Of a stretch of DNA of 64,000 nt, positions 6,005-54,486 are shown in pieces. The notes beneath the pieces were generated by a model that was not told the origin of the DNA, ran no database searches, and saw nothing but the letters and a program-made list of their open reading frames with translations. The stretch covers positions 620,001 through 684,000 of the forward strand of contig QPGO01000019.1 of the NCBI GenBank assembly GCA_008632985.1. Direction: 5' to 3'. Each line of letters opens with the position of its first letter. The stretch's first letter is position 1. Made by a program: the position numbers and the translations under genes. This stretch comes from Psammoneis japonica (taxonomy: Eukaryota).

Positions 6005-6037
6005 AAAGGGAGCGACATACGCCAACCTTGTCCTCTC

Positions 6038-11731: not shown

Positions 11732-11810
11732 CGGGTTCACATCTTTGCCCACCCTCAGCTCCGCTTCTGGCCCAACCCCTTGTCACTTGTCGGCGCTCCA
11801 AGAGTGGCAG

Positions 11811-18072: not shown

Positions 18073-18842
18073 GGCGAGTGGTGGGCCGGAGCAAAACAAT
18101 GTTGTCTCAGTGTGAAGCATGAAGCGCAACAACAAAATCTCAATGATTGGTGGGACTGGGATGTCTTCCAGTGTGGACCGTAGCAGTGCCACTGCGCGGT
18201 GCGCACGTGGGACACTGCCTCCATGATGCGCAGATCTCTCGTTTAGCTGGGTGCGTGACGTGATGCAGTTGGATGTTTTTGTAGCTCTTGCGCAGAAAAG
18301 ACGCTTTTTTTTTTAGGCGAGCTCACGCGTTTTCTGCCACACATTTTTAGAAAGTGTGACAAAACTTTGGCTCAACGGAAAGTTGTGGCCACAGACATTT
18401 TGCTGCACATCCGGGTTTCTTCTTCAATCCCACAGGATTCTCAGTGCACTTTCTACACGAGCTTAGAGAATCCGGATGTACAGCGAAAAACTGTGACCAA
18501 AGCTTTACATCCGGGTCTTTGTGTGACGTAGCTGCCAGCAGTGATTCTACGTAACATCCGGGTTACATGCAAAGCCAAAGTTGCGCCATCAAAGTTTTTT
18601 GTCGAAAAGCTGTGACGCAACCAAATAGCCCACATAATCAGGGGCCCAAAAATGTGTGATAAAAATGTCATTTTCACGAGTTCGTTGTAGAGATGTGCTA
18701 GAGATCGCGCCATTTGTCCGTTGGTGTCGGTCTTGTTGATCGATCGTTTCAGAAAAACCAAAGCAGCTCTGCTGTTTGCTGTTCACACGGCACACTCAAC
18801 ACGGCCCACAACCCACAACAGGAGGAAGCCACGACGAATGCC

Positions 18843-20159: not shown

Positions 20160-20586
20160 GCATTGTTCTGTTTTTCTAAATAGCACAGTTTGTAATCTCT
20201 AGCCTGACATTGTAGATGCAATTGGCTTCGATGGCTTGGGCCTACCTGGCAGGCGTCCGTAAGATAAGTAAGACCGGACCCGCATTCGTCACATTTCTGC
20301 AAGATTTATGTGCGTTTTTCGCCTCAATCCGCGATTTCCCGCAGACCCTTACACTTGAGAGTTAAAAATTAGAGAAAATACCGGGACAAAAAATGTTGTC
20401 CTCAATAATATGACTCTGCTACATAGAGGTTGAAATGATATTCGCCATGATGATCTACATTATTTGTGTACAACGCCCAGAGATGACTTTTATTTTTTCG
20501 AAAATTCATCGGAACGAAATGACGAAACAGAAACAGCACCAAATTTACCACATTGAAATCAAAACACGAGGCTTTATCTCCCCGCT

Positions 20587-22601
20587 ATGACAGCCGCTGA
20601 GGAAGAAATTGAAGTTGACTTGGAGGAGCATGAAGAATTGGTTTTGGATAGTTTGGATGACACAGAGCACTCACGCGCTATCGAGTTGCCGAAACCGACA
20701 CCTGTGCATTTGGAGTACGGCGTGACCTTTTCTATTGAGACCGGTGAGAAGAAGAAGAAAGCGTTGTTGGAATGTGTTAAAGGAGAAGCAAAACCTGGTG
20801 ATTTAGTGGCCATAGTCGGAGCGTAAGTCGTTTCAACTTCGCTGATCAATTCGATGATAGCCATGACGGATCTTACTCATACATGCGCAGTTCTGGTGCA
20901 GGCAAGACCACACTCCTGACTGTTTTAGCGGGTCAAAAGTCTTCCTTTCGTGGCAGCGTATCCTTCAACGGCGTACCAATATATAAAGTACTGCAGAGCG
21001 AATCCCCTCTCTTTTGTTTCGTCCAACAAGAAGATTTATTCATCCCGAGCATCACTCCGCGGGAACACTTGATTTTCTCAGCACGTCTTCGTATTGACAG
21101 AAGCGTGTCTGACGAGGACAAACTCCGCCGTGTTGATGAGCTGTTGGAGGAATTAGGTCTAAAAAAGTGCGCAAACACTCCTATTGGAGGGGCCGGCGCA
21201 CTTGTCCGTGGACGGATCTCAGGTGGAGAACGAAAGCGTCTAAGCCTCGCGACAGAGCTCTTGTCGAATCCATCCGTTATCTTCACGGACGAACCCACGT
21301 CGGGTTTAGACAGCTTCATGGCTGAAACTGTGGTGGCAAAGCTTGGTAGCCTTGCTCGGGCGGGACATACGATCTTGGCAACGATTCATCAGCCATCCTC
21401 CTACGTCTTCTCTGCTTTTACAAAACTTCACTTGTTGTCGAATGGAAGAACCGCCTACTCAGGTACAACGTCAGGTGCCGTAGAATACTTTGCATCCATT
21501 GGAAAGCCGATCCCGCAATTCTTGAATCCAGCAGATTACTACATTAAGCTGCTGAGCATTCCAAGTGTCTCGGAGGAAGTCCTGGAAAAGTGGGAACAAA
21601 GAGCAATCGTTGAAGAAGATGCAAATTGCCATCGACGAAGCAAGCTCAGAAGGGCTTCGACTGTGAAGCTTATGCTCGCAAAGAAGAAATATGCTGTGTC
21701 CTGGTGTACACAATTCAATCAGCTCATGAAAAGGACAGTGTTGGCTTATAAGCGTGACGCAACACTCGGAAGGATTCGTCTGGGACAAACCGTTATAGTC
21801 GGCTTGGTGGTGGGGGCGATCTTTGCCATGCTTGGCAAATCCCCAATCAAGGCCGACAACGTCCAGTCAGTGAATGGTATTCTTTTCTTTTCTGTATTAA
21901 ATCAGAGTCTCCTTGGCTCAATAGGAGTGCTGCAGGTTTTCCCGCTTGAAAAGCCGATATTTTTGCGTGAAACATCGGCAAGTTCATACAAGACATCATC
22001 CTATTTCATGGCAAAATCCTTTGCAGAGTTTCCTTTCCAGGTGGTGTTCCCTTTTATTTTTGCAACCATTATTTACTTCTTAGTCGGTTTTGGTGCCGCC
22101 GGATCCGCCGGCTCCTACTTTACGTTCGTGTTGTTTGTTGTCTTGACGGCAGTTGCCGCAGTGAGTTTTGGATATTTCTTCGGGAGCATTGTTCCGAGCG
22201 TCGGACTAGCTCTGACTGTGGGTCCGTTATTTCTCATGGTAAGTTGTTATCTTTGTTGTATCTAGTCATTCTAGGAACGCATCGATCTGACGAATGTTTT
22301 CATTATGGGGTTGCAGCCGCTTATTATCTTCGGTGGGCTCTTTATGAATGTCGACCAAATTGATCCCTGGTTTGTGTGGATATCGTACCTGTCTTTTGTG
22401 CGTTATGGTTTTGAAGGAGTGATGATCGTGATTTGGGAGCAGGAAGGCGATCTTGGTCGCGCAGTTTTGGAATCATTTTCATGGAACGTCGACCACAAAT
22501 GGCGAAACGTTGGATGCCTAAGTGCACTCATTCTTGGTTCCCGAGTTCTGGCAATGGCAGCTCTCAAATTCCAGTCCGTGAACAAAACTAAAACGAGATG
22601 A
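20587..22601 (+). CDS. ABCG (White-like) half transporter; introns 20823-20890 and 22239-22316
   Basis: Walker A GASGAGKTT across intron 1, signature ISGGERKRL, Walker B IFTDEPTSGLDS, TIHQPS, then a multi-pass TM domain; GT-AG introns. Confidence 0.93.
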
Positions 22602-22756
22602 AAAAAATATGACACGGCAAAAAGCACTTCCGACTGGCGTTCTTCGAAAACTCAATTTATTATGATTTTGGATGCTGCAACACTGCTGCCGTGCTCTACT
22701 AAATAAGGAAGTTCCCATCCTACAAGTGGACCAAATTCAGTTTACAGCTAAACAGA

Positions 22757-25492
22757 CTAATTCTTTATACCACATGTCCTGCCTTCCTTGAAGTCACCAC
22801 GAGTGGGCTTCTCCAAGAAAATGCGGCAAAGATATACATCGTTCCTGTTCAGCTTTGAGTCATACCCCAAGCAAGAACTGGATTCTGCGCACCTTGCTTC
22901 ACAGTCAAACGGAAGTAAATTAGAAGTTTGGAAATTTTGCCCGGCACATTTGTAGTTCTCATGCACAGTGAAATCGTTGGTTGGGACAGTGACGGGCGAA
23001 CGAGTCGGTGACATGGTGGGAATCCGCGTTGGAGGCTCTGTTGGACTTCGAGTCGGTGCCTTTGTGGGACTCCGCATTTGAAGATCTGTTGGACTTCGAG
23101 TTGGTGATTCTGTGCTCGTAGACACCCCAAGTAACCCTGCAAGCTGACCGGAAGACAAGCTATCCGCCCAAACATACAATTCGTCAACCAGGCCAATGTA
23201 CGGTTCATGTGCAGGAAGCAACGATTGGTACGTTCTGTTTCTACTGTGTCCAAACCCGCCGATGCTGACTAAACCTGCAAGATCAAGAAAAAGATAGTTG
23301 TCCACTCCGTTCACTCGTGTTGCAACACGTTTGCCATCAACATACATTTGAACCTCGGATAATCTGCAACTGTTTCTAGGCATGCTAATGGCAACATGAT
23401 GCCATTCGTCATCAGCCAAATTCACCCTCCCCACCGGGGATAATCTCATGTTTTTGCCAGCATAGAGAGCAGGGACGCCTCGATCTAGTGTCAGAGAAAA
23501 GATGTGGTTCACGTATCGGCCATCATTAATGAAGTAAGCGCTGCCGTAGTGGATCAGTATTTGATTCTTCCGGGATCTTCCAGTCTTGAACCACATCGCG
23601 TACGAGATTTTGATGCCTCCGCTATGCGGACCACGCCTGTTAGAATAAAATTGAGCGCAGAATCAATTTGGAGTTAGAAGGAAAAACCGCGTGGCTGCAT
23701 AGGCTGCGCTGAGCTGATAACACAAAGAAAGCGCACTCACCCAAATACCGCAACACGACTAGTTGAATTCAATTCGGCGGCTTTACCAAAGACACCGTCT
23801 CGAAGAACAACATCTCCTACTTGAGCATCGTATTGTTCTAAGAACGCGGCGAGGACAACAAATCAGTGAGACTCTTCAAATTGCAGAGATGGCGAGTGCA
23901 AGAGAGACTGAACTTACGGTCATAGGCACCAAGATTGGCAAAGGAGTTTCGACATACAGTGCCAAGAATCGTAATCTTGCGCTGTACTTTGGTTTCCCAG
24001 TAATCATCATGCGATAGACCCAGCACTGGCCTATCTCGTAACGTGGACATGCTGTCGAAAGAGAAGTATATCATGGGACGCGTACGATCCAGAAGCTTCA
24101 AAGATCCCTCAGATTCAATCTTTGTTTTCTCCTCAGATTTATCGATAACCAACTGACCGTAGAAATCATAGTCAACGTTGTGGTACGGTCCCGGCCCCTT
24201 TCCAATATATTGATTAATTTTGATGGTATCATCCGTCATGTCGACCGTGATGAAATTTTCCACACCATTTCCGCGAGAAACTACCTGTACTAAGTTTGAG
24301 TTGTAGTCCTTGGTTGCAGTGTTTGCATGGACCTGAAAACCGACAAAAAATGTTTCAAGATATTGTTGATGAGATAGGTGACGCAAGCACAATGCGAGAA
24401 GAAGACGAGAAGAACGGACGCTCACCTCTCCTGCAAAATAAACGTCGACGTTATACTGCTGCATCGCCTTGAAGAAACCAGAGTTTTCCGCACCATCCAT
24501 GAACTGGCCACTACACTTTACCTTGCGCACAGGCTGCAAGATTGGCAAGTGTGCTTGAACGAAAATATGCTTGATCGTTGGGTCGTTTCTTGCCTCGGAC
24601 AACACATAAACGAACCAATCCAAATGGGCGCCAGTTACGTCGCACGTCACGGTACCCTCCCCACCTTTGCCTTGGGCAAGGTCATGAAAGTCAAACGGGA
24701 GTGACTTGAATGCATCAACCGTTACAATCAATGCGTTCTTGTGGCGGTAGGCAAAAGACGTGCGTTCAAAGATTGTTCCAATTGGACGGGAACTGGCTCC
24801 TGCAACAAGAGTAGTGTAGTTGAATTAGTCAAAGACATTGAAGCCAATTCAAATACAAATATGACAGACTTCATACTTACGTCCAATCGGATCTTGATAG
24901 AGAAACTGCCCTCTTCTATTTTGGTTGAACTTTTCATAAAATATCTGACGAAAGTTTGGCACCAACGCTGTTTTCTCTAGTTCTTTCAGCCAAGTATTTC
25001 CTCCGATTTCGTGATCCCCAACCGCCATTAGCAGCCTGGAATATCCAGCTTCGGCAAACACTTTCTTCATGCTTTCATAGCATCGTTCCCCTGCTTTACG
25101 AACCGCTTGCTCTTGTGTCCTCACGTTAAGATCGTCGAGAAACTCGGGCCGGTACCATTTCCCACTCTCAGCGTCCCCGGGGAGGACAACTAACTCGCCA
25201 CCGTACCGCTGCTTGATGAGTTTGAAGGCTTCGATCTTTTTCTCTCCCCCGGATTCTTTTGGTGGCCTCTTTACGTCAAGAATTGGATCCAAGACGAACT
25301 GAAAGAAAGAAAAATGAACGAAAGGAATGAATCGATGAAAGGTTCGAACGGATAGGTTACAGAAAAACACACACATACCGTCTCAGCCCCATGCCAATCC
25401 GCAATTACAATGAATCGCCACGAGTTTTGGGCTTGAGAAGTCATTGAGAAAAGCAAAAGCAGCAAAGCTCTTACACCAGATGACAGCCCCAT
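22757..25492 (-). CDS. Secreted calcineurin-like metallophosphoesterase + LamG/ConA-like + PT-rich stalk + Cys-rich C-terminal domain, copy 1 (multi-exon)
   Basis: Signal peptide; ADWHG, LPGD, AVGDHE, VQAHLP, FAGEVH motifs; LamG WHHVAIS...MYVDG...IDE-type motifs; PTRSPT repeats. Confidence 0.85.
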
Positions 25493-28088
25493 CTCCAAAA
25501 GCAAACCAAGAGTAACAATAACAACCACAACAACTGCAAAGAGGGCGTGTGTGTTTTTGTGTTTCGTGTTCGGTGTTTAGTGTTCGTGCTCTCTGTTCTC
25601 TGGCGTCAAGCTCACATCTCACACAAGATCAGAATACATACGGGGGTCGTGCCGACACGACAAGGTCAAATGACTCTGACACTTTGCTTGTAATAATTGT
25701 TGCTGAAAAAGTCATAATTGACAATGGCCTACAAAAAGACTTATAGAAAATCTTTGTCACTTGGGATTTGGACACTGGGCCTCGTTCGGTTGCATCTTGG
25801 TCTTTCCATTGATGTGCTGAGAAAGGATGATTGTTGCAATGTCATCTTGCTCAGCAAATCTGATCTTTTTGAATCCGCTGCACCCCACATTTTGATGCAC
25901 AGTGACTCGAGTGCACTGACCTTGTGGCAGCCCTTGCAGCCTGCAAGAAAGAGAGTCAAAAAACTGTTGGCAAATGCTCAGCAGAAAGTCGCCCTTTGGC
26001 TCACCTTCCTCAGATCCAACGCACAAATGACACGGGGTGGTGAGAACATCTCCCCACACTCACAGCATCAACACCACTGTCAACTCTCTTAAGATGACAA
26101 AGATCATGCACATCAAAGTTTCAGCCTGCAGCAAGGGCGCGGCAAACTCCTGCCTGCAGATGTGTCATTTGTGGACACAAGGCTTTAAAAGAAAAAATGG
26201 TGGCTGGCACAGCCTGCCAACAGACAAACCAAAATGTGTGAAGCCAACCACTGTGCTGCCTGCACAGAGGACCAACAAGCAACTTCATCAGCAGTTTTGC
26301 CCCCACTCAACTTTTGTCAAAGCAGGTGTCTTCCACAGCATGTGTGCCATTCCACAAGATCAGCTGGGTCCTGACGCCACTGTTTGACACCAGCACCAGC
26401 ATGACCCAGCATCTGTGCATGCAAAACCACCCCAAGCCAAGTGCCATCATTTTGCATTTGATTTGGGCACAATTCAACGTGAGTTAAACTTTAAAGAGAC
26501 ACATCTTTGAACAACAACCCCGTGCTTTGAACAAACCAAGTGCAAGAGTCAAACACAAAATGCAGTCATGGGAGGAAACACTGCCACAATTTTGAGAGTA
26601 AAGAGTGGGACAAGTGAGCAGGATGAAGGATCCTCAAGGACAATGGCAGCCACCATTCACCGTGCATTGTGCATGCACACCTGGCTGGCAACTGTTCCAA
26701 AGAGCACTGTCTGCAAGCTCCCAACTTTCTTGAAAAGTGCGGCACATGATGTTGCAGCAGAGTGAGAACAGTGACCCACCCCTTTGTTTGTGCGAGATGA
26801 CTTTTTGCTTGCATGGCTTGTGGCAAATGCATGTTTTTTCTGGAGCTCTAGCACACCACTCATCAAATCTCCCAAAGACAGCCTTTCTGGTCAAACCTCA
26901 ACTGCAGGGTCAATGAACTTGCAAGGATCTGAAAAATGTGAGGGGCAATGGTGGCACAAGTGACTGCCCTGCCATGTCGGTGCTTCTAAACAACAACAAC
27001 AACAACAACAAGTTGGCAAGAAATTCTCTCATTGAATGTGTGCTGCCCCCCCCTGATGGCTTCTCCAGAAAACCATTGGTTGCATGGGTCATTGCAAAAA
27101 AAAGCGTTGCAGCCATTCAACAAAAACATCCACAAAAAACAAAAAACTTGAGTCAACCCCTCATTGAAAAATTCTTTGATTCTTCTCTCAAAGGCAAAGT
27201 TGTCAAAGACACCATCAACAAGATGAAGGATGATCATGGCTTCAAGACACCAAAGAACACCATGAAGCTCAAGTGTCTCACTGCATTGCACAAGATCTGG
27301 GTGACAAAGATGGATTCACCAAGTCTCTGCCCAAGGGACTTGTCCACTTGGAAAAATCCCTTTGGCTTCCCACAAGATGATGAAGCAGGAGAAGACACCT
27401 TGCCACATGGAAGTTAGTTCACAGCAGATGAAGCTTCCATTGAAGAGTGTGTCAATGACAACCTCAGCGGGGGTGCTGGCAACAAGACTGGCAGCAGGAG
27501 ATCAATGAAGCAGAAGAAGAAAAACAAAGGAAAGAATCACAAAAATTCCCTCTCCTCATCATCAGCAAGCTCCTCCTTCTCTGACTCATCATCTGAATCA
27601 TCCTCATTGGCTCAAGCAGTGGGGGGATGAATTTCACTGCAAGAAAGAACAAGAAGATGATCAGAAAGATGATCTCAGCAACAACTTGTGTGAGATCATT
27701 GGGCTGGCAACATGAAGGACAAACCCATCACTCAGAAGGACAGCACTTTTTCAAAAATCAATTCCAGAAACTTCCTTTTGCTCAGATGAAGATGCACCTC
27801 CAATGATTAAGACCCAATGCTGAAAAGGATAACTGGGTTGACATGTGCCTTGGCATCAATGTTCAACAAGCCAAAAAACTTGTTGAGGCCATCAAGTTCA
27901 CCCTCAAAGATTTTTTGATGCATTTCTCAAGCTCAAGGTGCTGCAGAATGTGGAACACACTAAGATGTGCAGGTGGCCAATGATGATCTCCAATCAGATC
28001 AACCCAGGAAAACTGGAAAGAAGATCAGCAAGCTGCTTGGCAAGCCAGCAGAGCTGCGAGCCACAAAAGTTGCCAAACCTGCTGACAC

Positions 28089-28150
28089 TGTGGATGAAGC
28101 AAGACCAGCCCTCCAGCAGTGTGGATGAAGCAAGACCAGCCCTCCAGCAG
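28089..28150 (+). repeat. Perfect 31-bp tandem duplication
   Basis: TGTGGATGAAGCAAGACCAGCCCTCCAGCAG twice. Confidence 0.9.
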
Positions 28151-30859
28151 ATGTTTGTGAAAGCCAACAAGAACTGACCACTCAGACCCAAGGTTGATGC
28201 CAGAGCACTCACAATGCATCAGCTTGAATGAGGCTGATCTTGTTGACAAAGGAGTCATCCAGCAGCAGGCTCATCTGAAGCATGCAAAGACTCTCACACT
28301 TGACAATGTAGACCACAAGCACTGGACATTGCCAACCAGAACTCAGGACTGTCACTCCATGAGATGATTGTGGAGATCACACAACCCAACAAACCCGAGA
28401 TTCCTCAATTTGTGGAAGCAGGAATCCACCCCATGTCTCGAGGGGGACAAGAAAGTTGTGGTGGTGCATCACCCACAAGTGAAGTTGAAAGTGGTCCCCA
28501 TGGGACACACACTTCTCCCACACCTGTGTGTGGCAAGAACATGGAGAGGTTGTTCTTCCTCCCATCACATGCAGCCAACATGGAAGATGCCAGAAGATGG
28601 GATGACAAGGAGAAGCATGAAGCTGTGCACCCAAGAACAAACATGATGCTCAAGGACTTTGTGAGGACAGCAACTGTGACTTCAAGAATCTCAACAACAT
28701 TGACATCAAGGAAGGACAGGACAAACCAATGGAGAACTTGCCAGAAGTGCCAGACAATCCGATCAATCCTGCCATGCCAGGAGAAGGAGGCTTGGACAAA
28801 AACACAAGGGCTTCAGCAAGGAGAGTGCAAAAGGGCAAGTTGGCTCATGTTCCACCCAAGAAGACTGCAAACCCATGAAGGCTGACAGTGCCCACAAACA
28901 AGACAACTCTTTGGTGACTTCAAACACAGAAACTGCTGAGCAGACGCTGCACAATGCAAATGATCAGATGCACGCACTTTCAGCACTGGCACATCAACTC
29001 AAGGATGCAGCAACAAGAAAGAACAACAATGGACAAAATCCAGATGACAAGAACAGCACGTCCAGTGCCCCAGAGAGCAACTTCAAGATTGCAGATGGGT
29101 CTGATGACAAGAAAATGCCTGTTCATTTGGAATGGTCTGTTTGCTCTAACAGCAAAGAGAAAAGCATGTCCGGCAATGCCACGAAGGTGCCAGGGGAGGG
29201 AAGATGCATTCCTTCCATGGCATCCACAGCTCCATTCAAGCCAGCAAGCAAGGAAGCTCAGCTGGTGAGGGCAAGCAGTGGTGATTGAGAGAACCTGTGG
29301 TGGGTGGCCACATGGCTCCTTGACAAAAAGAGGCTGCTGCCAGGGAAAGAACAAGACAACCAAAAACACCAACAAACCTGAGTCGAGCTGCAACTGTGGG
29401 GCAAATTGCAACAAAAAAAGAGAAGACACACTCAGAGTGGCACTCCAAAATGTCATGTTTCACTTCCATGTCATTGCTTGTGCCGCCAACTCTGTGTCTC
29501 TTGGGAGGAGGAGATTTGGCTCCCTTGAATCTAGAGTTGAAATGGTGCATGTGAATGAACACTGGAGCGCAAGAGTGAGAACACCAGCACGCTGAAGACA
29601 GCACAAGAGCAACATCTTAACTCACCATCTTGCTGCTGCTGCTGCTGCTGGCACATTGCTTTTGCTTTTTACATGCAGGCTGGTGTTTGGATCAGTGGCA
29701 CCTGCAGCAAAGATCTTGAAATCAGGAGCATTGATGTCTCCTTCAACTTGTTTGACCATTCTGCTTTGATGGCTTCCCTCAGTTTTCTCACACAGGGTGC
29801 CAGAATTGAGTTGATTTCTGTGGGATGGAAGGAATGGGTGCACTGCAAATGACATCAAAATGCAGAGAGCATGCTGTCATTGCAGGTGAGTGAGGACCAG
29901 ACTGGCCATGCATCATGCAGACATGAGTGCCACTTGACCTCAACAGGCATTTGCTGCCATTGTTTGGGTGGCAACACACAAATTTTTTGAACAGCCGGTG
30001 CAGCGGCACTCTTCACACCCAAGTTTAGATGGAGACAGCATCCTCCAGCAAGCCTGTCCAACAAGCATGACTCTTTGACTGGTTTGATTGGAGGAGGGCA
30101 CCTCTGAGCCAACATGACTTGCTTTGGTCTTTCTGACTGTGACTCATCAAACCTCTTTTTTTTTTTGCTTTTTTCTCATTTTTCCACCTCTGTTGGAACA
30201 GGAACACTGACCACTGTGACTGGATCACATTGCAGTTGCTGTTTGTGACCAACACATGGTGAAATGCCAGATGTCACATTCAACAGGTGGCTTTTCAAAA
30301 CATGCCCAAGGAGAACTGGTTTTTTGTTTTGGCCATGAGCCCCCATGCTGCATGCATGCAGGACCCTTTGGAGGGTTTGGGATCACCCACCCCTCACCTT
30401 TGTGGAGCAGAGCTTGCACCAAAAGATTTGCTCCATGAGACTCCCAAGCACTCTAATGTCAAGTTGCTTCTCAGTGGTTCTTGGCTGGGATGTCAAGAGC
30501 TCACATTGGCAGCAGGCTTTTCTGAGTGCCAACTTGGGCCCCAATTGGTGATTGGGTCATTCTCCTGCATGCACTCCAGAGATGAAAAAATGCAAATGGT
30601 GCCCTCACCGACACATCATTTTGTCACTTGCAGAGTTCTGCATCCCAGACTTCCCCATGATCCACAATGATTCAACACAACTGAGGGAAGAGGCAGCAGG
30701 TGCAGCAAGCAACACCACAAAAGGAAGCAGCATGGCAACGCTGTGCCATGAACTGTTCAAATGCACACATGCACACAATCACAATGAACATGAGCAAATG
30801 CCACACCAAGCAATGTTTGGCAGTCATGACTGAGAGCTCCAGTCTTGGCTTTTCCAAGT

Positions 30860-31008
30860 GAAAGTTTGAGCAATTGCCCAAACTTGCATCCACCATTTGC
30901 TCAAACTTGGCAAGTTTGAGCAATTCCTCAAGTTTGCTGCAAGTTTGAGCAAATGCTCAAACTTTGAGATTGCTCAAACTTGCACAAGTTTGAGAAATTG
31001 CTCAAACA
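30860..31008. repeat. Cluster of short direct and inverted AAGTTTGAGCAA/TTGCTCAAACTT motifs (further copy ~31552-31570)
   Basis: Roughly ten half-sites forming AAGTTTGAGCAATTGCTCAAACTT-like dyads. Confidence 0.75.
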
Positions 31009-32049
31009 CATGCAAAACAACCTGTGTTGGCATGACACATGGCACTGTGACAACACAAAGATGATGCCAGCATTGGTGATCTGTTCACTGCAATTTTGAC
31101 TTGAAACACAATGAGTGTCAACATTCCAGCACATGTCAGTGCCCAGGCACACTTTGAAAAATGTTTTTGATTGAAACAAAAGGCAAAATGTTGTTGCATG
31201 AAGGTGTTCCTTGTTGGTCCCCACAGCCCCCCAAANNNNNNNNNNNNNNNNNNNNAACAAGCCTGTTCCACCAGAGCTTTCAAATTTTTTTGTGTGAGTT
31301 TGCACTGCATGTCTTTCATCAGATCATTGGGTTTCTTGGAGGCACTGTCATCAATTGTTGTTTGTGTTGCCATGGCACAATGGTTGTGATCATGTTGTTC
31401 ATTGCCAATGGCTGCAAGCACATTGTCTCCATTGCGTTTGTTTTGTGCTGACACTTGCATGCAGTAAAAGCAGCAATCACAGTGTGCACAGCAAGTGCTG
31501 CAAAGTGGTTTAGCACCAGTGGCATCAAATTTTGGACTCAAAATGCGCGTCTGAGAAATTGCTCAAACTTTCGCAAAAGGTTCAACAAAACATGATTCAA
31601 ACAGCACATTGTGACAGCTGCAATGGCAGCACATGTTTTGTTGCAAAAAACATCAAAGAAAGCAACAACAAAAAGCAACAGAAGCACTTCACACCCACCA
31701 TGTCTAAGAAAATGAGTTCAGCACTGGGAGACAGTGATGAAGCACAGCTGTCAAAACACCCAGCCAACAGAGTCTCAGCAACTCAAGTTGGAGACAGAAT
31801 GCATGGAAGGTTTTCAAAGTTTTCCCATGGCCACCAAGATTGCTTTGCTCCAGTCTGCAATCATGACAATGTGCTGCATGATTGCAACAAGACACTGCAT
31901 GAAAGCCACCATTGGAAACACTCATTGTTGTGATGGCCATTTCCATCTGCCACTTCTTGCCTTGAACGAAGCTGTCAAGCCCAGTGTTGGTGGACACAAG
32001 CATGCACAAAAGATTGGAGACAACAATGGCAATGAGAAAATCGTTGCCA

Positions 32050-33125
32050 CAAAGATCTCCCTGGCTGGAATTGTGGAGTGTGGAGAAGGCATGTGGACAG
32101 ATGACATGAAAGAAGTCAGCTTTCCAACCAACAAATTTGAGGGGATGGTTCTTTTGTTGTGAGTTTGCTTGGAAGTCAAGTCACAGCATGCACTGATGGA
32201 ACACCTCTTGAACATGTGAACAAGTCTGGCATGCAGGAACACTGCAAGCACCTCATTTGGGATGCACTCAGTGTCCTGGGACTGACCAAGCAACAAAAGG
32301 GTGAAGGTGAGACACATGCTGATCACTTGTGCTTGCTGAGCTGCCTGGCTGTGCCATCACTCACAATCTCCCTTTCCTTGGTCTTGCAACCACCACAGAT
32401 GCATCTTGAATCATCAATTTGTCTGTTGAAGCCTGACATTGTCCTTGTCCTAAAATGTGGCAGGAGCATTGTGTTCATTGTCAAAGCAAAGAGCCCTGAG
32501 CATGTGCATGATGACCAGAAAAAGAAGGCGGTCCATGGGAGTCAAAACATTGCTGGTCAGATTTGGTCACATCTGTGCACCATGATGAGCATCTGGTGTG
32601 AAAACTCCCATTGGTGCTGTCATGACTTGCAATGGAACTGCCATTGTCATGCTTGACAACCTTTTGAAAGACAAAGTTCATCTCCAGAAAGAAGAAGAAA
32701 ATGCAAGAAGTTTTGCTGGTGGGAAGAGTGCCCAAAGTTTTGTCTGAGAAGGAGGAAAATGAAAACTAAAGCAAAGAGATGGGAAATTGTCTGCAAGAAC
32801 CAATTCAAGGCTTGGGTCAGCTGTTTGGATGGCAAGCGCTCCCTTGTCATGCCCCATGGCCACAAGATTGCTGAGGATTGATTTGTCCACATTGTGCCAG
32901 CAATTCACAATGAGCCAAAGTTTCTCTGTGATCTGGAGTCTCTTGTTAAACTGGAGGAAGGCACCAATCACAGTGAAGCAGCACACCAACATTTGCTGAT
33001 TCTCTTGTGCCCAAAGTTTGAGCAATGCAAGATTGACATTGGCACCATTCTCAGGAAGGTGGCCACAAATTTTGATGGTTTCATCTTGGCAATTGTTGCA
33101 AACAAGATGCTCAAGGCATTCTTCC
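32050..33125 (+). pseudogene. Decayed gene with a PD-(D/E)xK nuclease-like segment
   Basis: LKPDIVLVLK(C)GRSIVFIVKAKSP...IAGQIWS(H)L(C)TM resembles PD...E.K..GQ..Y motifs once H/C are read as Y; family call is inference. Confidence 0.45.
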
Positions 33126-35747
33126 AATCAGTTGATGAGGCAAACTCTCTGTTTCCAGCAAATGCAGAGGGGGGGGATTCCAACTTTGGTGGAGAGTTTG
33201 TCATGCAGAGCAAAGGTTCTCCTTTGCATGTTTTTGAGCTTTCTCCTTTGGATTGGGACTCGTCCATGACAGACACTGACAATTCCGTCCCTGAATTGTG
33301 TGACACCAGAACTTGGCACATGTGTGAGCACAGCAACAAGGAAGGATGGACCAGGAAGTGTGCCAAAAATGTTCAAACAGGTCACGTCATGTGCACAAGA
33401 ACAACACATGCATCCACTGCACAAAGAAGCACAAGGTCAGTGTCAAGTAAAGTCTGCTTAGCAGCTCACAATCTTGTGGGTTTAATTGTGGATCCTGTTT
33501 GAATGCAGCTGCACAATGCCATGTCAGACACACAAACCACATTGCACTCAATTATTTTGAGGTGCCAGAAGTCCAAAGAAACTGCAAGCATTGAGTGAGC
33601 AGCAAGTGCAGGCACTGCTGAAAGAAACTGAATGTGGTTGGAACACTGCATTGCAGTTGCCACATTCACTTCAGCAGTGCCCCGTAGAAAGTGGCTGTCT
33701 GCACTTGCACCATCACCATTGCATTGGTGTGTTGTCTTTCATTTGAGCACCCAGTGATGACTGCACAACTTCCACAAGAGGCCAAACACTTTTGTTGCTA
33801 AGACAGAAATTTTCAAAGACTCCAACATGAGAGAATCCATCCCTTTCAGTTAACCCACACATGCACACCAACATGAGTGGACACTCCTGCCTTCCTTTTT
33901 GCCACTTTCAAACTTCCATGCCTTGCCAATCCAGAGAGTGCTTCTCCTTCTTGTCAGCAACCATTGGAGCATCATTCAAGCACATGCACCCCTCATTGTC
34001 ACAGCTGTAAACCAAACCAGTGTCCAAGCATGGCAGCATGGTTGCAGACTTTGAGTTTTTGTCATCTGGATTGAAAACTGCATCACCATCTGCATCAACA
34101 TGCCCATCATGGCACGGAGGAGCAGATGCCATCTTTTGTTCTTCTTCAATGGCAGAATCATTGGAAGTGGAGCTGAGCAAGTGCTGACAAGTCAAGAAGC
34201 AGTGGACAAGATCAGCAAAAGCAATTGCGAATGTGTCAGAAACAGCCAGGGTGTGCAGGCAATGACAAAGACAGGAAAGGTCTCATGAACGATGTGCATC
34301 AAGCAAAAAATGGCAGCTGTGACCACAATGTTGAATCCAGTCAGATGCTTGGCAACCTTTTGGCCATCGTTGGCTTGCTTTAGAGCCTTTGAACTTTCAT
34401 CCAGCCCACAACCTTCATGATTTCCCCAAGAACAAGCTGGCAACCACACCATGAACCAAATCATCATTGGAGGAAGAGCAGCCAGGGCTGAAAGGATCAT
34501 TCGCTACAAGCAGCAAATGCAGTGAAGGAAGGCATCACAAATCCCCATGAAGAAGGGAGCAAAACACAGGCTCCATCTCTCTCATCCACTGAATGACAAA
34601 ACATTTTTTTGGCCTGCTCCTGTCTGGGATGAACTGCTGTGACTGTGCGCTTTTTTCTTGCATTGGGTGACAAGATTTGCAGAGAAACAGGATTCACACA
34701 GTGTCGATCCTGAAAACACAAAAGGCATTTTTGGATGCAACAAGAGATGGGTGCATGTCACATGGATGGATTCCTGTTGCTTTGGAGTTCTTGCTGGCAA
34801 TGTGTGAACAGCTGTGTTGTGTCATGTTGACTCGCACACTGCTGCCAGCTTGCAATTGACTGAATGAACAATTGTCTTTGCAAGGCCATTGTCAATCTTG
34901 CAGAATTCAATGACTTGTGCAGGACATGCAGGTGGAGTCATTGTCCACACCAAAGTTGACTTCTTCCCCGTCATGCCAGGCTCCCTCCTTTGATTGGCAT
35001 TGTCAAACTGTTCCTGGCTGGGTTCCAGCTCTTGCATGGCCTCAAGGAAGAACTCCTTGCACAGTTTGCAAAAGTGACCATGCTGGAAGGTGAAGTTGGG
35101 CATCTTTTGAGTGGTGGTGGTGGTCAACAAGTCAACAGAGCAAGTCATCACAATCTCATCAGCTGCAACTTGGTCTTGACTGTCTGAGACATCAATGCAA
35201 TGTTCAAACATCAATGACTTGCAAACCATTTGGCAGGTGCCACAAAAAAGAAATGGGGTGGAAGAAAACAATGCTCCTTGCTGCTGTCCAAACAGCAGAT
35301 CATGAGTCTCCATGCAGAGCCTGTTGCAGGAGCTGACAGACATGCATTGTAAATTTGGGCTGTTGTTGTCATTCTTGTGAGCTGAGGAGTGGCTCGAGAG
35401 CAAAACTGCAAGGAACTGAATGCACACAAACCTGTGTGCAACAAACTGAAACAGCACCACATGACAAATCGTTCACAAACTGACATCCCATTCAATCAAA
35501 TCTGATCTGCAGCAGGCAACCCTGGACAACATGGCAAGGACATTGTCCTGCATTTGCAGGCTGGCCCAAGGGGGCATCTGATTGTGCAGAAGCATGCTTG
35601 GCTTGAAGCATGACTCTCAGAGCAACAAGTCTGCAGTTGGCCATGAAAGTTCTGTGCAGAGATGAGTCATGCATGGCCCAACTCCTGGCCATCATGCAGC
35701 TTGTGCATCTTGTGTAAAGAGGCTGCACAGAAGAGTCCACACACAAT

Positions 35748-36362
35748 GAAATGTGACCACTGTCATGTGGGGATTCCAACTCTACATGTCTTGCTGTGAT
35801 GTCAATGTGCACCTCACACAAAACAATCTTGCACACTTTCCACAATGCCCAGACTTGCTTGTCACTGCCCAAGTGCTTGGACTTCATCCTTGCACAGGTC
35901 AGGATGCCATCCGACAACTTCCCCCCCAGTGCCCAAAATCATTCCAACCATCAAGGCACATTGAGTGTGCTTCATTTTTTCTTGCTGGCCTGTGCCTGGG
36001 AAATGCTGCACATGGAGCTCCACAGAAGCTTGAGTCATTTTGTGCAATGACCGCCAATGAAATGTGACCCACTGTCATGCAGGGATTCTAGCTCTGCATG
36101 TCTTGCTGTGACGCGAATGTGCACCTCACACAAAACAATCTTGCACACTTTTCACAACACCCAGACTTGCTTGTCACTGCCCAAGTGCTTGGACTTCATC
36201 CTTGCACAGGTCAGGATGCCATCCAACAACTTCCCCACCAGTGCCCAAAATCATTCCAACCACCAAGGTGCATTGAGTGTGCTTCATTTCTTGCTGGCCT
36301 GTGCCTGGGAAATGCTGCACATGGAACTCCACAGAAGCTTAAGTCATTCTGTGCAATGACTG
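35748..36362 (+). repeat. Tandem duplication of a ~310-bp unit
   Basis: GAAATGTGACC...TGTGCAATGAC repeated at ~35748 and ~36059. Confidence 0.9.
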
Positions 36363-36659
36363 CCACTCTCAACCAAAAGTTTTGGTGAAATTGGCCAGAC
36401 TTTGACCCCTGCACTGGAGCCATGAAATGCCAACAAAAAGAAGCACTGACTGTCAGTCTGCTGCTTTTTGCACCAATGTGTTGTGAGCACATCCCACGCA
36501 GGCATTGTTCACAGTACAAGATGTTTGAAAATGGAGCAGACTTTTTGCACAGCACCTTCATTGTTCACGGGCAAGTGCAAGGGGCAAAAATCACAGTCAA
36601 CTCTGTGACTTGCCCTTTTTGCAGCACTGAAATGCCAGCAAACAACTCAACATTGTCAA

Positions 36660-37250
36660 GCAGCTTGCTTGCAACTCAATGCTGCCACAGCATGCATCCA
36701 TTTTCATGGATGATGGGTGCATGATGCCCTTTTTTATGCCTCCAACAGCATTGCCTTTTGGATCCCTCTCCAACCCATGCCAGCAGATGACAGTGCCTTG
36801 GAATTTGTCAGCAAGTCCCATTCCAATTTGACCTTGGCGTTTTTGGAATGACAGTGAAAGCAATGAGAACACCAACATCCAGAAGAATGGAGTTTGAAAC
36901 AAGGGCATTGTTCACTGCATGCCCATGGCATTGGGCAACATCACGGTTCATTTGGGATGGACTTTGCATTGCATGGCTGCTAGAGAAGAGCAGTTGGCCT
37001 TGGCCATTGTCTGTGTGGATGCCATTGTGGAAATGCAACACGGCGCTCAAGTCAAACATGATGCGGATGTTCGACAAGGAAGAGGCAATGGTGACAACGA
37101 AGCTTGTTGGAGCTACAAGCATTGGCTCGATGATGTCACACCTCGACAACCGTTTCAACATGCCACGGTTCCGACTGTGTGCCCCCCACTGACAAGTGAG
37201 CAGGTGTATTTTGCGAAAGCAGTTCCAACTTCGCCACTCAAAATTCAATG
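36660..37250 (+). pseudogene. Decayed phytanoyl-CoA dioxygenase (PhyH)-like gene fragment
   Basis: FWIPLQPMP..SALEFVSKSH and MPMALGNITVHLGWTLHC...ALAIV(C)VDA segments in different frames. Confidence 0.55.
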
Positions 37251-37255
37251 ATAAC

Positions 37256-37757
37256 TGCGCAGTTCTGGTGCAGGTAAGACCACACCCCCGAGCGTGTTAT
37301 TTGTTGTCTTGTCGGCAGTTGCCACAGTGATTTTTGGACAGTTGTTTGGGAGCATTGTTCCGAGCGTCGGACTACCCCTGGCTGTGGGCCCATTATTTCT
37401 CATGGTAAGTTGTTATCTTTGTTGCATCTAGTTATGCTGGGAACGTATTGACCTGACGAATGGTTTCACTGGATGGTGGCAGCAGCTTATTGTTTTTGGT
37501 GGGCTCTTTGTAAATGTCGATCAAGTTGATCCCTGGTTTTGTGTGGATATCGTACGAATCTTTTGTGCGTTATGGTTGCGAAGGAGTGATGATTGTGATT
37601 TGGGAGCAGGAGGGCGGGAGGTTTGGAATCATTTTCATGGAACGTCGACCACAAATGGCGCAATCTTGGATGCCTAAGTGCACTCCTTATTAGTTCCCGA
37701 GTTCTGGCAATGGTAGCTCTCAAATTCCACTCCGCGAACAAAACTAAATCAAGTTGA
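37256..37757 (+). pseudogene. Internally deleted duplicate of the ABCG gene
   Basis: 37256-37290 matches 20884-20919 (Walker A) and is joined to a match of 22127-22601; frameshifted. Confidence 0.85.
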
Positions 37758-37901
37758 AGAAATATCACACGGAATACAGCAGTTTCGAGAGGCGTTCTTC
37801 GAAATCTCTATTGTTATGATTGTAGATGCTGCAACACTGCTGCCGTGCTCTACTAAATAAGGAAGTTCCCATCATACAAGAGGACCAAACTCAGTTTACA
37901 G

Positions 37902-40636
37902 CTAAACAGACAGATTCTTTATACCGCATGTCCTGCCTTCCTTGAAGTCACCACGAGTGGGCTTCTCCAAGAAAATGCGGCAAAGATATACATCGTTCCT
38001 GTTCATCTTTGAGTCATACCCCAAGCAAGAAGTGGATTCTGAGCACCTTGTTTCACAGTCAAACGGAAGCAAACGAAAAGATTGGAAATATTGCCCGGCA
38101 CATTTGTAGTTCTCATGCACAGTGAAAACATTGGGTGGGGCAGTGACGGGGGAACGAGTCGGTGGCATAATGGGACTCCGCGATGGATGCTCTGTTGGAC
38201 TTCGAGTCAGTGACTCTGTACTCGTAGAAACGCCAGCTAACCCTGCAACCTGTTCCGAAGACAAGCTATTTGCCCAAACATACAATTCGTCAACGAGGCC
38301 AATGTACGGTTCATGTGCAGGAAGCAGCAATCGATACGTTCTCGGGTTACTGTGTCCAAACCCGCCGATGCTGACTAAACCTGCAAGATCAAGAAATAGA
38401 TAGTTGTCCACTCCGTTCACTCGTGTTGCAACACGTTTGCCATCAACATACATTTGAACCTCGGATAATCTGCAACTGTTTCTAGGCATGCTAATGGCAA
38501 CATGATGCCATTCGTCATCAGCCAAATTCACCCTCCCCACCGGGGATAATCTCATGTTGTCGCCAGCATAGAGGGCAGGAACGCCTCGATCCAGTGTCAG
38601 AGAAAAGATGCGGTTCACGTATCGGCCATCTTTATTGAAGAAAGCACTGCCGTAGTGGATGAGCATTTGATTCTTCCTGGATCTTCTAGTCTTGAACCAC
38701 AGCGCGTAAGAGATTTTGATGCCTCCGCTATGCGGACCACGCCTATGAGAATTGCAGAAACAATTTGGGGTTAGAAGGAAAAACCTGCGTGGCTACACAG
38801 GCTGCGCTGAGCTGACAACACATAGAAAGCGCACTCACCCAAATACTGCAACGCGACTAGTTGAATTTAATTTGGCAGCTTTACCAAAGACACCGTCTCG
38901 AAGAACAACGTCCCCTACTTGCGCATCGTATTGTTCTAAGAACACAGCAAGGGCACCAAATCACTGAGACTCTTCAAATTGCAGAGATGGCGAGTGCAAG
39001 AGACTGAACTTACGGTCATAGGCACCAAGATTGGCAAAGGAGTTTCGACATACAGTGCCAAGAATCGTAATCTTGCGCTGTACTTTGGTTTCCCAGTAAT
39101 CATCATGCGTTAGACCCAGCACTGGCCTTTCTCGTAACGTGGACATGTTGTCAAAAGAGAAGTATATCATGGGACGCGTACGATCCAGAAGCTTCAAAGA
39201 TCCCTCTGATTCAATCTTTGTTTTCTCCTCAGATTTATCGATAACCAACCGACCATAGAAATCATAGTCGAAGTTGTGGAACGGCCCCGGCCCCTTTCCA
39301 ATATATTGATTAATTATGATGGTGTCATCCGTCATGTCGACCGTGATAAAATTTTCCACACCATTTCCGCGAGAAACTACCTGAACTAAGTTTGAGCTGT
39401 AGTCCTTGGTTGCAGTGTTTGCATGAACCTGAAAACCGACAAAAAATGTTTCAAGACATTGTTGGTGAGATACGTGACGCCAAGACAAAGCGAGAAAAAG
39501 ACGAGAAGAATGGACACTCACCTCTCCCGCAAAATAAACGTCGACATTATACTGCTGCATCGCCTTGAAGAAACCAGAGTTTTCCGCACCATCCATGAAC
39601 TGGCCACTACACTTTACCTTGCGCACAGGCTGCATAATTGGCAAGTGTGCTTGAACGAAAATATGCTTAATCGTTGGGTCGTTTCTCGCCTCGGACAACA
39701 CATGAACGAACCAATCCAAATGGGCGCCAGTCACGTCGCATGTCACGGTACCCTCCCCACCTTTGCCTTGGGCAAGGTCATGAAAGTCAAACGGGAGTGA
39801 TTTGAATGCATCAACCGTTACAATCAAAGCGTTCTTGTGGCGGTAGGCAAAAGACGTGCGTTCAAAGATTGTTCCAATTGGACGGGAACTGGTTCCTGCG
39901 ACAAAAGTAGTGTAGTTGATGAAAGTAGCGGTGTAAATTTTAAGATTGAATTGATTTAGTCAAACACAGTGAATCCAATTCAAATACAAACATGGCACAC
40001 TTCACACTCACGTCCAATGGGTTTCCGATAGAGAAATTGTCCTCTTCTATTTCGGTTGAACTTTTCATAAAATATCTGACGAAAGTTTGGCACCAACGCT
40101 GTCTTCTCTAGTTCTTTCAGCCAAGTATTTCCTCCAATTTCGTGATCCCCAACCGCCATTAGCAGCCTGGAATATCCGGCTTCGGCAAACACTTTCTTCA
40201 TGCTTTCATAGCATCGTTCCCCTGCTTTACGAACCGCTTGCTCTTGTGTCCTCACGTTAAGATCGTCGAGAAACTCGGGCCGGTACCATTTCCCAGTCTC
40301 AGCGTCCCCGGGCAGGACAACTAACTCGCCACCGTACCGCTGCTTGATGCGTTTGAAGGCTTTGATCTTTTTCGCTCCTCCGGATGCTTTTGGTGGCTTC
40401 TTTACGTCAAGAATTGGATCCAAGACGAACTGAAAGAACGAAAAATGAACGAAAGGAATGAATCGATGGAAGGAACGAACGGAGGTTGAATTGAATTGAA
40501 CTACAGCAAAACAAACACATACAGTCTCAGCCCCATGCCAATCCGCAATAACAATGAATCGCCACGAGTTTTGGGCTTGAGCAGTCATTGCGAAGAGCAA
40601 AAGCAGCAAAACCTTTGTACCGAACGATAGCAACAT
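37902..40636 (-). CDS. Secreted metallophosphoesterase-LamG-PT-Cys protein, copy 2 (close duplicate of copy 1)
   Basis: Same motifs and intron positions as 22757-25492; collinear nucleotide match. Confidence 0.85.
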
Positions 40637-41856
40637 CTCCAAAAGCAAACCAAGAGCAAAAAACAACCAAACTTTTGGGTGTTTTTCGAGTTTTGACGTC
40701 AAGCTCACATCTCACAGAAAAAGGGGGCGGTCTGAGAAGGACGACACGAAAAGGACAAATGACTCTGATAATTCGGTGTAATAATTGTTATTTCAATTAA
40801 GTCATAATAAAAAATGGCCTACAAAAAGACTTATAGAATAACTGTAAAAATTTTATGTGTTTATTAGTGTCCGAAGCTTTTACATGAATCTAACATTATT
40901 GGCAACAAATTGATAAAATTTATATATATATATTGCCCATTTTTTCTTTATATATTGCCCCATCAGTCCCGGTGACAATTTTGAAAGTGGAGAGAGCAGA
41001 TGGGATGGAGGACAATGGCGGTCACCATTCATCATTCATCATGCTGAAAGCATCCACACCTAGCTGACAAATGCATGTTCGAGAGGGCCCTGTCTGTAAG
41101 CTCCCAACAATCTCATTCGAAAAGCATGGTATGACCCTTTATTTGCGTGACGACTTTGCGCACACATCGGCTCGTGAGTGCATACCATACTTTTTGTTGG
41201 TGCCCCGGCATGCTCCTCAAGGCTGCCAAAGACAGCTCTTATGGTTGGACCTCAACTAAAGGGTCGAAAAATTTGTAAGGATCTAAAGGATGTGAGGAGC
41301 AATGGCAAGTAAGTACCGCATATCGGAGGAAAGAACAACAAGTTTGCATCCGACGCATACAGGTCAAATCTTCCTTCCAAACGACGACAAAAGTCGCCCA
41401 GAAATTCTCTCAAGAAATGTACGCCCCTCTAGATTCTTCAGAACACCATTGGCTGTAGGTATGGATCGTTTTAGCGAACTGGATAACAGTTGGCGAGCCT
41501 CACCAGAGACCCGTGAGGAGACACATGCTAGATTCCAATACCAGGACGTCAGCTGAAGTGAGACTCGCACTATACAGTAGTTACTTTGCTGTTTAGTTGA
41601 GGGGCTGGGGTGTAGTTAATGACGTTCGTATAATGCAAGCTTTTTCTTCATTGCGGAAAAGTTATCAAAATGGTTTTTGCACGCGTCGGGGTTGCATTCT
41701 CTTGGGAGAGCTGAACTTGTACTGTACATTCTTCGTGCGTAACGCTATTCTCATTATTGGTCGGACTTCAAAAACATTAAATCTGCCTTAGAAATGACTA
41801 CAAAGAAACGCGATTCGCTGCAGAGCTTGTATGAGATCTCGGGGAAATCTCTCACG

Positions 41857-52785: not shown

Positions 52786-54486
<1,701 letters not shown>

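Follow-up and report, generated by a model that had tools for sequence, protein, structure and literature searches.

The locus and its TpA-poor blocks

The sequence considered here is a 64-kb window of the Psammoneis japonica genome (GenBank assembly GCA_008632985.1, contig QPGO01000019.1, positions 620,001 to 684,000 of the forward strand), within which all composition, paralog and block comparisons were made; coordinates are those of this 64,000-nucleotide stretch. The window is gene-dense eukaryotic DNA with a GC content of ~47%, CpG near expectation and a TA relative abundance (rho) of 0.60. Four TA-poor blocks, designated A to D, lie in it, each with edges that are sharp at the 250-bp scale and with otherwise normal DNA around it. 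In these blocks TpA has been converted to TpG and CpA at rates that depend on the flanking bases, and in block A the conversion went on after an internal duplication. A preliminary description of block A, made from its letters alone, had read the few remaining TA sites as the imprint of a target motif. The features needed for the analysis, with their strand where one applies, are as follows; open reading frames are abbreviated ORFs.

25749-37292: block A; TA rho 0.05, CG rho 0.12, CA/TG rho 1.85
Rest of the window: control; TA rho 0.60, CG rho 0.98, CA/TG rho 1.16
26583-27100: host-derived part of block A, corresponding in mutated form to the intergenic DNA that is unmutated at 40972-41454
35744-36365, plus strand: tandem duplication inside block A, two ~311-bp copies with 92% four-letter and 98% purine/pyrimidine (R/Y) identity
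22127-25748: unmutated host array unit left of block A, containing the Laminin_G_3 gene 22757-23662 (minus strand) and forming the control pair with 37293-40838
6005-10999: block B, span used for composition; TA rho 0.12, CG rho 0.83, CA/TG rho 1.46
5864-12078, plus strand: block B retroelement, two ORFs between 141-bp direct repeats
5864-6004 and 11938-12078: the 141-bp direct repeats of block B, 93.6% identical
5996-8122, plus strand: block B ORF1, conserved at the upstream position in related loci
8264-11032, plus strand: block B ORF2, reverse transcriptase
17001-20000: block C, unclassified; TA rho 0.22, CG rho 0.83, CA/TG rho 1.38
16762-16868 and 20118-20210: weak inverted repeat flanking block C
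57001-59092, minus strand: block D, copy of a host cysteine-rich repeat gene; TA rho 0.04, CG rho 0.63 and CA/TG rho 1.68 over 57001-59000

Content of the blocks

Block A begins and ends abruptly, with the number of TA per 250 bp falling from 11 to 0 at 25750 and rising from 2 to 11 at 37250. It sits exactly between two duplicates, its left edge being the end of 22127-25748 and its right edge the start of 37293-40838, which are 87% identical to each other over 3676 bp in a BLASTN self-comparison. The first ~835 bp of the block (25749-26582) begin exactly at the onset of TA depletion and stand in for ~133 bp (40839-40971) of the sister unit; they are probably a separate small insertion within the mutated domain. 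A six-frame Pfam scan of the block, with stops written as X, returned no families, and its ten longest ORFs gave only chance-level Pfam matches; the block thus shows no coding content that can be recognised. No viral gene was present in that six-frame scan or among the window ORFs scanned. A BLAST search of block A against the window in purine/pyrimidine code was swamped by chance matches near 73-75%. The only similarities in an ungapped R/Y dot-plot with 120-bp windows and a minimum of 98 matches were the internal duplicate and the host homology at 26.8 kb, from which it follows that most of block A has no paralog in the window.

Block A was compared with the contigs of the one public DNA run that contains the stretch, possibly the assembly’s own sample; no RNA run containing it was listed. 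Such contigs cannot reveal rare variants. Block A is rebuilt in them at a depth of ~63-66, the same as its flanks. Four differences separate the contigs from the stretch, one of which is GTAA versus GCAA at 34008 (TA/CA). Two segments, 29774-31509 and 34982-35415, have summed contig depths of 214-335 and 1004, respectively, against ~66 elsewhere, and 69 contigs placed on them are only 90-95% alike; because of the extra depth and these divergent contigs, both segments are taken to be multi-copy in the genome. The block also contains a 20-N scaffold gap (31236-31255), which a ~150-bp palindrome at 30858-31007 adjoins.

Block B is a retroelement whose ORF2 has 380 relatives at E<=1e-5, some of them with RVT_1; those with named organisms are from the diatoms Fragilaria and Epithemia. 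Its TA observed/expected ratio (o/e) is below that of all 78 related metagenome-contig loci (0.32-1.02), and no second mutated copy of the element occurs among those loci, where the minimum o/e is 0.32. A tblastn search of the window with 120 reverse-transcriptase relatives gave 242 high-scoring segment pairs, none of them outside block B. Members of the family (L001-L078) have an ORF1 of ~700 amino acids, an ORF2 of ~800-900 amino acids and a total length of ~5-6 kb; they are abundant in marine, freshwater and microbial-mat metagenome contigs, have a GC content of 50-63%, and carry a reverse transcriptase that Pfam sees weakly (RVT_1 E 0.04 to 1e-4).

Block D is a duplicate of a host gene. 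Its ORF at 57464-59092 (minus strand) has 44% amino acid identity to the unmutated neighbour at 61537-63579 (minus strand). Part of this ORF (58325-58718) is an internal tandem repeat of ~60-bp units, 78-86% identical, that encodes an Ala/Ile/Ser-rich motif and is not in the aligned part of the block D paralog. The ORFs of block C match no Pfam family. Taken together, the mutated DNA comprises a retroelement (B), a host gene duplicate (D), an unclassified tract (C), host intergenic DNA (26583-27100) and partly multi-copy sequence (A).

The preliminary description had also proposed a selective loss of Tyr (TAY) codons, and the encoded proteins bear this out. The block D ORF has no Tyr in 542 residues, and ORF2 of block B has 2 in 922 (0.2%), compared with 1.1-3.3% in 120 relatives. 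Among the 121 proteins of the family, ORF2 has the lowest Tyr content and the highest Cys and His contents. At 13 alignment columns often occupied by Tyr in the relatives, the ORF2 residue is His at six, Phe at three, and Cys, Tyr, Arg and Trp at one each.

Overlapping ORFs of at least 150 amino acids are stacked on both strands of the TA-poor blocks, eight across 5969-8122 and eight across 57162-59092. Such long overlapping ORFs arise in TA-poor blocks because a change of TA to TG or CA makes no in-frame stop and removes TAA and TAG. Since TA loss itself opens reading frames, the open ORFs of block B are no evidence of a live element.

Direction and specificity of the change

Whether these tracts are natively poor in TA or have lost it was addressed by alignments to unmutated paralogs. 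The host-derived part of block A can be aligned with its intergenic sister, the ungapped core (26825-26983 against 41179-41337) matching at 104 of 120 positions in purine/pyrimidine code. Over the 446 aligned positions of 26583-27100, none of the 15 TA of the paralog is kept; eight have become TG, five CA and two TC. Of the paralog’s 16 CG, one is kept, and eight have become TG and five CA. The block D alignment gives the same picture at the DNA level, with TA kept at 1 of 32 sites and changed to TG at 16 and to CA at three. The control pair, aligned globally, keeps TA at 110 of 139 sites and CG at 137 of 170, and its changes are symmetric. The tracts have therefore been mutated, as the preliminary description held.

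The dinucleotide composition supports TpA as the target. Among the dinucleotides of the blocks, only TA (together with CG in block A) falls and only CA/TG rises, while AT, AA and the rest stay near control, GpC excepted. In block A the balance closes: the TA and CG lost from control composition predict that TG and CA occupy 11.46% of positions, and 11.52% is observed.

The tandem duplication inside block A shows that mutation continued after it. Over 312 aligned positions, the two ~311-bp copies differ by 18 transitions and three transversions. Their dinucleotide differences are CA/TG at three sites, TA/TG at two, CA/TA at one, CG/TG at two and CA/CG at one, and it is the CA/TG, TA/TG and CA/TA differences that place mutation after the duplication.

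Contexts of the surviving TpA sites

The TA sites that remain were sorted into four classes by the bases flanking TA (YTAR, RTAR, YTAY and RTAY) and counted exactly in 25749-37250. The 44 sites found comprise 27 YTAR, nine RTAR, six YTAY and two RTAY, close to the tally made by eye in the preliminary description (about 43 sites, with ~27 YTAR, ~15 in the two mixed classes and one RTAY; the exact figures are 27, 15 and 2). By tetranucleotide, these are TTAA (10), CTAA (8), GTAA (6), TTAG (5), CTAG (4), CTAC (3), GTAG (2), TTAT (2) and single copies of ATAA, TTAC, GTAC and GTAT.

The baseline of 25/50/25% that had been assumed if context were irrelevant does not hold. In the 1687 TA of the unmutated window the classes are biased in the opposite direction (YTAR 16.6%, RTAR 27.1%, YTAY 24.7%, RTAY 31.5%), so the excess is not a bias already present in unmutated DNA. 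Relative to this control the class distribution of block A is highly skewed (chi2 66.2, p 2.8e-14; YTAR binomial p 3.1e-11). Normalization for composition leaves the YTAR excess in place: against a first-order Markov expectation computed within the block (YTAR 31.5%), chi2 is 19.7 (p 2e-4) and p for YTAR is 5.6e-5. The excess of YTAR among the surviving TA of block A is thus confirmed. Blocks B, C and D pooled have 26, 17, 21 and five sites in the order YTAR, RTAR, YTAY and RTAY (69 TA; chi2 32.5 against control, p 4e-7).

Dependence of the rate on the flanking base

A hazard model was used to describe survival, in which the two strands of a TA contribute independent hazards and the hazard of a strand is set by the base 3' of its A. 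This additive two-strand model reproduces the survival of the ten NTAN classes in block A (likelihood-ratio test (LRT), p 6.6e-13), which is as follows.

TTAA: 0.42
CTAA/TTAG: 0.32
CTAG: 0.22
GTAA/TTAC: 0.12
CTAC/GTAG: 0.07
ATAA/TTAT: 0.04
GTAC: 0.03
ATAC/GTAT: 0.01
ATAG/CTAT: 0
ATAT: 0

A joint fit to all four blocks gives relative hazards by 3' base of 6.0-6.8 for T, 3.1-3.6 for C, 1.3-1.6 for G and 1 for A (p 3e-21). Fitted without A, blocks B, C and D keep the order T>C>G~A (p 3.5e-9; p 1.1e-7 if B takes its retroelement family as baseline), and block C on its own has a context effect with an LRT p of 1.7e-4.

The preliminary description had concluded that the edited A prefers a 5' T and a 3' pyrimidine. 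That part stands with the hazards, which rank TAT > TAC > TAG >= TAA, but the YTAR survivors from which it had been drawn fit a 5'-purine rule equally well. Two rules were therefore distinguished. Under rule P, A is edited if followed by Y, which makes TGY and RCA; under rule Q, the requirement is an R before TA, which makes RTG and CAY. Because both predict the same YTAR survivors, they can be decided only on the products.

The products favour rule P. In block A (2644 TG, standard error 0.01), the fraction of TG in TGY is 0.553 and that in RTG is 0.466, for which P predicts 0.537 and 0.469, the absence of any rule 0.509 and 0.496, and Q 0.482 and 0.524. Multinomial log-likelihoods of the block A products rank P (-7280) above no rule (-7288) and Q (-7314). 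At polarised sites, YTAY has gone to TG nine times and to CA once, while RTAR has gone to TG never and to CA three times (Fisher p 0.014). In block B, compared with its family, the gains of TG are confined to TGY (+21.5 and +16.9), the other contexts standing at -6.8 and -9.3. Finally, GpC rho is raised in all four blocks (B 1.08, C 1.15, A 1.24, D 1.21; control 0.99), which favours P because TAC>TGC and GTA>GCA make GpC, whereas GpA and CpC, the expectation of Q, are not raised. The products thus support the inference of a T-A-pyrimidine motif with moderate strength. In the letters, a change to the A of T-A-Y would look the same as a change to the T in R-T-A on the opposite strand.

Strand asymmetry

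In block B, block D and the host-derived part of A, the change appears as T>C when read on the sense strand and thus as A>G on the template, although the numbers are small. In block D, whose gene lies on the minus strand, the top strand shows TG 16 to CA 3, so that 16 of 19 changes are TA>CA on the coding strand. In ORF2 of block B, on the plus strand, His outnumbers Cys by six to one at former Tyr positions, CA has gained 80 and TG 22, and CA exceeds TG overall (284 versus 198, p 1e-4). The host-derived part of A, which lies beside minus-strand genes, has TG 8 to CA 5. Control genes have no strand bias (1056 versus 1097). The sign of sense-strand T>C would fit adenine deamination of the template in RNA:DNA hybrids, or a thymine lesion on the sense strand.

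CpG loss as a separate process

The loss of CpG in block A had been taken in the preliminary description as the mark of an older tract, a view that two comparisons contradict. In the host-derived part 15 of 16 CpG are gone, yet the unmutated sister flanks are 91.5% identical. As a clock, CpG loss also fails between blocks, as block D has a fitted TA exposure of 0.66 against 0.53 for block A, yet retains five-fold more CpG (CG rho 0.63).

The TA and CpG losses are separable, because blocks B and C lost TA with little CpG loss and block D with partial CpG loss. In block A, 13 of the 16 aligned CG sites became TG or CA. Methylation-driven CpG decay resembles the pattern in block A only (CG to TG or CA, CG rho 0.12) and accounts for only the CpG half of the signal, not for the TA loss. 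The simpler reading is that CpG loss would be a second, locally accelerated process, a methylation-type decay confined to block A. The surviving CpG show no effect of a 5' T (0.27, against 0.31 in control) and no strong effect of flanking bases. For the CpG loss, an enzyme deaminating both A and C with the TCG preference of amphioxus ADAT2 was also considered; it is rejected, as there is no 5' T deficit relative to control.

Interpretation and alternatives

The blocks are probably genomic DNA that was hypermutated in place by a region-confined TpA process whose rate depends on the 3' neighbour. In the mechanism proposed, the T:A pair of TpA would become C:G, giving TpG or CpA according to the strand. 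The rate would be set by the base 3' of the adenine, equivalent to the base 5' of the thymine on the other strand, at ~6 for T, ~3 for C, ~1.3-1.6 for G and 1 for A. Each TpA would be attacked independently from both strands, with YTAR sites (TTAA, CTAA/TTAG, CTAG) the longest-lived and ATAT the first to be lost. The action would be on a domain and not on one element, taking in the retroelement of B, the host gene copy of D, block C and the 11.5-kb tract of A. A domain is favoured over an element because the host intergenic DNA beside the block A insert is covered and the change ends ~370 bp short of an intact host ORF (24849-25382), on its upstream side. In block A, a decay of CpG to TpG or CpA, as expected from cytosine methylation, would run alongside the TpA loss. 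The process would presumably disable foreign or silenced DNA. Its chemistry may be adenine deamination on DNA, an assignment that we make only tentatively; the scan of window ORFs turned up no deaminase domain.

Several observations weigh against this interpretation or limit it. Blocks B, C and D taken singly do not depart significantly from the in-block Markov expectation (p 0.25, 0.11 and 0.12). The survival and product models presume the starting composition of flanking host DNA (of the family for B), which is uncheckable for most of A. The fit of the product models is imperfect (chi2 70 on 16 classes), mainly owing to a surplus of TGC/GCA in block A, 801 observed where any of the models gives ~640. 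The 28 polarised outcomes carry a strand bias (TG 22 to CA 6, p 0.004) that by itself yields part of the YTAY>TG excess. In block B, three of the six Tyr>His changes follow a pyrimidine, contrary to a strict +1 rule; combined with the polarised sites, 12 of 16 changes are consistent with the rule (p 0.08). Some ‘survivors’ must be regenerated TA, because all three TA in the aligned part of block A sit where the paralog has TG, CG or CA. The evidence as a whole comes from one window and one run.

Among the alternatives, the one that keeps the same process and motif while placing the lesion on the thymine of 5'-R-T-A, as an oxidised or modified T that pairs with G, fares best, although we regard it as unlikely. 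The A and T readings are complementary on the same base pair, and the T>C sense-strand bias in three regions fits a lesion on a displaced or unrepaired sense strand. A thymine modification that prefers TpA exists in dinoflagellates; we know of no thymine-modifying enzyme or modified base in diatoms. The strand bias rests on small numbers and would arise equally from deamination of template adenine in RNA:DNA hybrids. The sole experimental precedent, in the alga Bigelowiella natans, is read in the main text of its report as adenine deamination, also without proof.

A second alternative, which is improbable, holds that the YTAR excess comes from TA being re-created with a bias, through C>T changes at CAR and G>A changes at YTG, instead of from slower loss. 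The three regenerated sites just mentioned speak for it, as do the double changes between CA and TG (six and four in the 446-bp alignment), which imply TA or CG intermediates. The contexts of TG and CA are near uniform, though, with flanking bases at 0.20-0.33, and cannot give the more than 10-fold spread between TTAA and ATAT. Re-creation alone is estimated to predict ~45% YTAR and 0% RTAY, while additive destruction fits all ten classes, and the product-side tests, which are independent of the survivors, point to a rule of destruction.

Rule Q, in which a purine stands 5' of T on the edited strand (R-T-A>G), is less probable still. It predicts the same YTAR survivors as rule P, and six of the seven TA-mutated Tyr codons in block B became His, as it expects for NTAY. 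It is the worst of the three product models by log-likelihood and by its predicted TGY and RTG fractions, the polarised sites run 12 to 1 contrary to it, the TG gains of block B are lacking in RTGR contexts, and it is GpC that is raised rather than GpA and CpC.

Hyper-editing of element transcripts from A to I in RNA, fixed by reverse transcription, would suit block B as a retroelement with both ORFs open but is most improbable. The host-derived part of A and the tandem duplicate D changed where they stand, next to unmutated sister copies; edited sense RNA would turn Tyr into Cys, where His prevails six to one; and the 3' order T>C>G>A reverses the liking of ADAR for a 3' G. Equally remote is the view that the blocks are natively poor in TA and CG, being foreign or under selection against TA; in its favour, the Pfam scan gave no clue to the source of most of block A. 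It is contradicted for B, D and the left part of A: conversion is seen in the paralog alignments, and block B stands apart from its own family. The edges, moreover, are sharp in non-coding DNA, and the internal duplicate has CA/TG double differences. GC-biased gene conversion was considered and is rejected, as CpG is lost and AT, AA and TT stay unchanged.

Relation to known systems

The closest known case is Bigelowiella natans, in which the targets are integrated DNA of nucleocytoplasmic large DNA viruses (NCLDV) and of virophages (Mettrop et al., bioRxiv 10.64898/2026.01.13.699255). According to the main text of that preprint, 230 of 231 mutations that accumulated in two integrated viral regions were A>G or T>C, all at TpA; these regions mutate ~1000-fold faster than the rest of the genome; and the de novo events, at ~1e-7 per site per generation, occur in some lines only (bioRxiv 10.64898/2026.01.13.699255). 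The genome is described there as holding 124 TpA-poor, CpA+TpG-rich clusters enriched in transposon/transposase and reverse-transcriptase domains, and its authors put forward, but do not prove, a DNA adenine deaminase of the ADAT2-like kind (bioRxiv 10.64898/2026.01.13.699255). The main text gives no flanking-base rule and does not mention diatoms; its Table S2 or Fig. 2B may hold such a rule. A literature search returned no paper tying diatoms to a TpA-loss signature, and the preprint was the sole match on the phenomenon.

The likeness lies in the change of A:T to G:C at TpA only, the discrete regions and the TpA-poor, CpA+TpG-rich footprint. The differences are that the host here is a diatom (a stramenopile) and not a chlorarachniophyte; that depletion is deeper, with TA rho of 0.04-0.22 compared with the 0.45 given for the B. 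natans NCLDV region in the preprint; and that the targets include a retroelement, a host gene duplicate and intergenic DNA of the host, with CpG lost as well in block A. By this resemblance we infer that the hypermutation is of the same targeted kind, and we read the blocks as the probable long-term footprint of a B. natans-type process in a stramenopile, carried much further.

Repeat-induced point mutation (RIP) of fungi is similar in being defence-like and in making region-limited transitions in a dinucleotide context that decay repeats and can reach adjacent DNA. RIP changes C to T, mainly at CpA, and in doing so creates TpA and lowers GC. Here TpA is destroyed (rho 0.05) and CpA/TpG made (1.85), which is the opposite direction and the other base pair. 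Hypermutation by ADAR or APOBEC enzymes, as undergone by retroelements and viruses of animals, shares the clustered transitions with a neighbour preference, the aim at selfish elements and, for ADAR, the 5' U. ADARs are metazoan, act on double-stranded RNA, favour a 3' G and disfavour a 3' U, while APOBECs deaminate C. The present case differs in that non-retro DNA is mutated in place and the 3' order is T>C>G>A.

The natural target of TadA/ADAT enzymes, A34, always follows U33, and the loop recognised by TadA reads UACG. Both features agree with a T-A-pyrimidine motif. Similarly, the target A here is preceded by T, as the loss is specific to TpA with ApA and ApT unchanged. One ADAT2 with measured activity on DNA, the amphioxus enzyme, prefers GAA for adenine and TCG for cytosine, and the TadA variants of the adenine base editor (ABE) type accept a broad adenine context, according to one report (PMC10354150). 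Unlike in these systems, TAT is faster here than TAC, and surviving CpG lack a 5' T effect. The attribution to TadA/ADAT, which the preliminary description had favoured, may serve as a lead.

A broader proposal, which we consider possible but doubtful, is that diatoms carry a RIP-like defence acting on the other base pair: a DNA mutator directed at domains of silenced, duplicated or invading sequence, where it would erase TpA in the form T-A-pyrimidine. It would be the same system as in Bigelowiella and hence old and widespread in the stramenopile-alveolate-rhizarian (SAR) lineage, with the motif pointing to a DNA-active adenine deaminase and the strand bias hinting at RNA:DNA hybrids.

Region-targeted hypermutation at TpA only has so far been reported in one preprint on one rhizarian alga. 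A footprint in a diatom-like genome adds another major lineage, of great importance in ecology, to the range of the phenomenon and widens its targets beyond integrated viruses to retroelements and duplicated host genes. New here is the quantitative rule TAT > TAC > TAG >= TAA, which offers a direct comparison with the de novo mutations already published and a basis for screening candidate deaminases in vitro. The blocks are also a trap for annotation, as TA-poor tracts are full of spurious long ORFs and their Tyr-free ‘proteins’ will be mis-annotated.

Host genes and the tandem array

The remaining genes of the window include a FAD-dependent dehydrogenase at 3708-5315 (minus strand), which has 62-72% identity to the 120 matches listed, all of whose named organisms are diatoms, as well as an HA domain protein along with SET and WD40 genes. 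Laminin_G_3 genes form a tandem array on the minus strand, and the units that flank block A belong to it.

22127-52100, minus strand: tandem array of five or six units, one Laminin_G_3 gene each, 65-87% identical
22757-23662, 37902-38792, 41857-42882, 45609-46679 and 49286-50203, minus strand: Laminin_G_3 genes of the array

The first 139 bp of unit 2 of the array are copied from the 3' end of an ABC transporter gene (20802-22265). A Glu/Leu/Phe/Val dehydrogenase gene (52786-54810, minus strand) is split over three ORFs, 52786-53328, 53315-53776 and 54139-54810, presumably by introns or a frame change.

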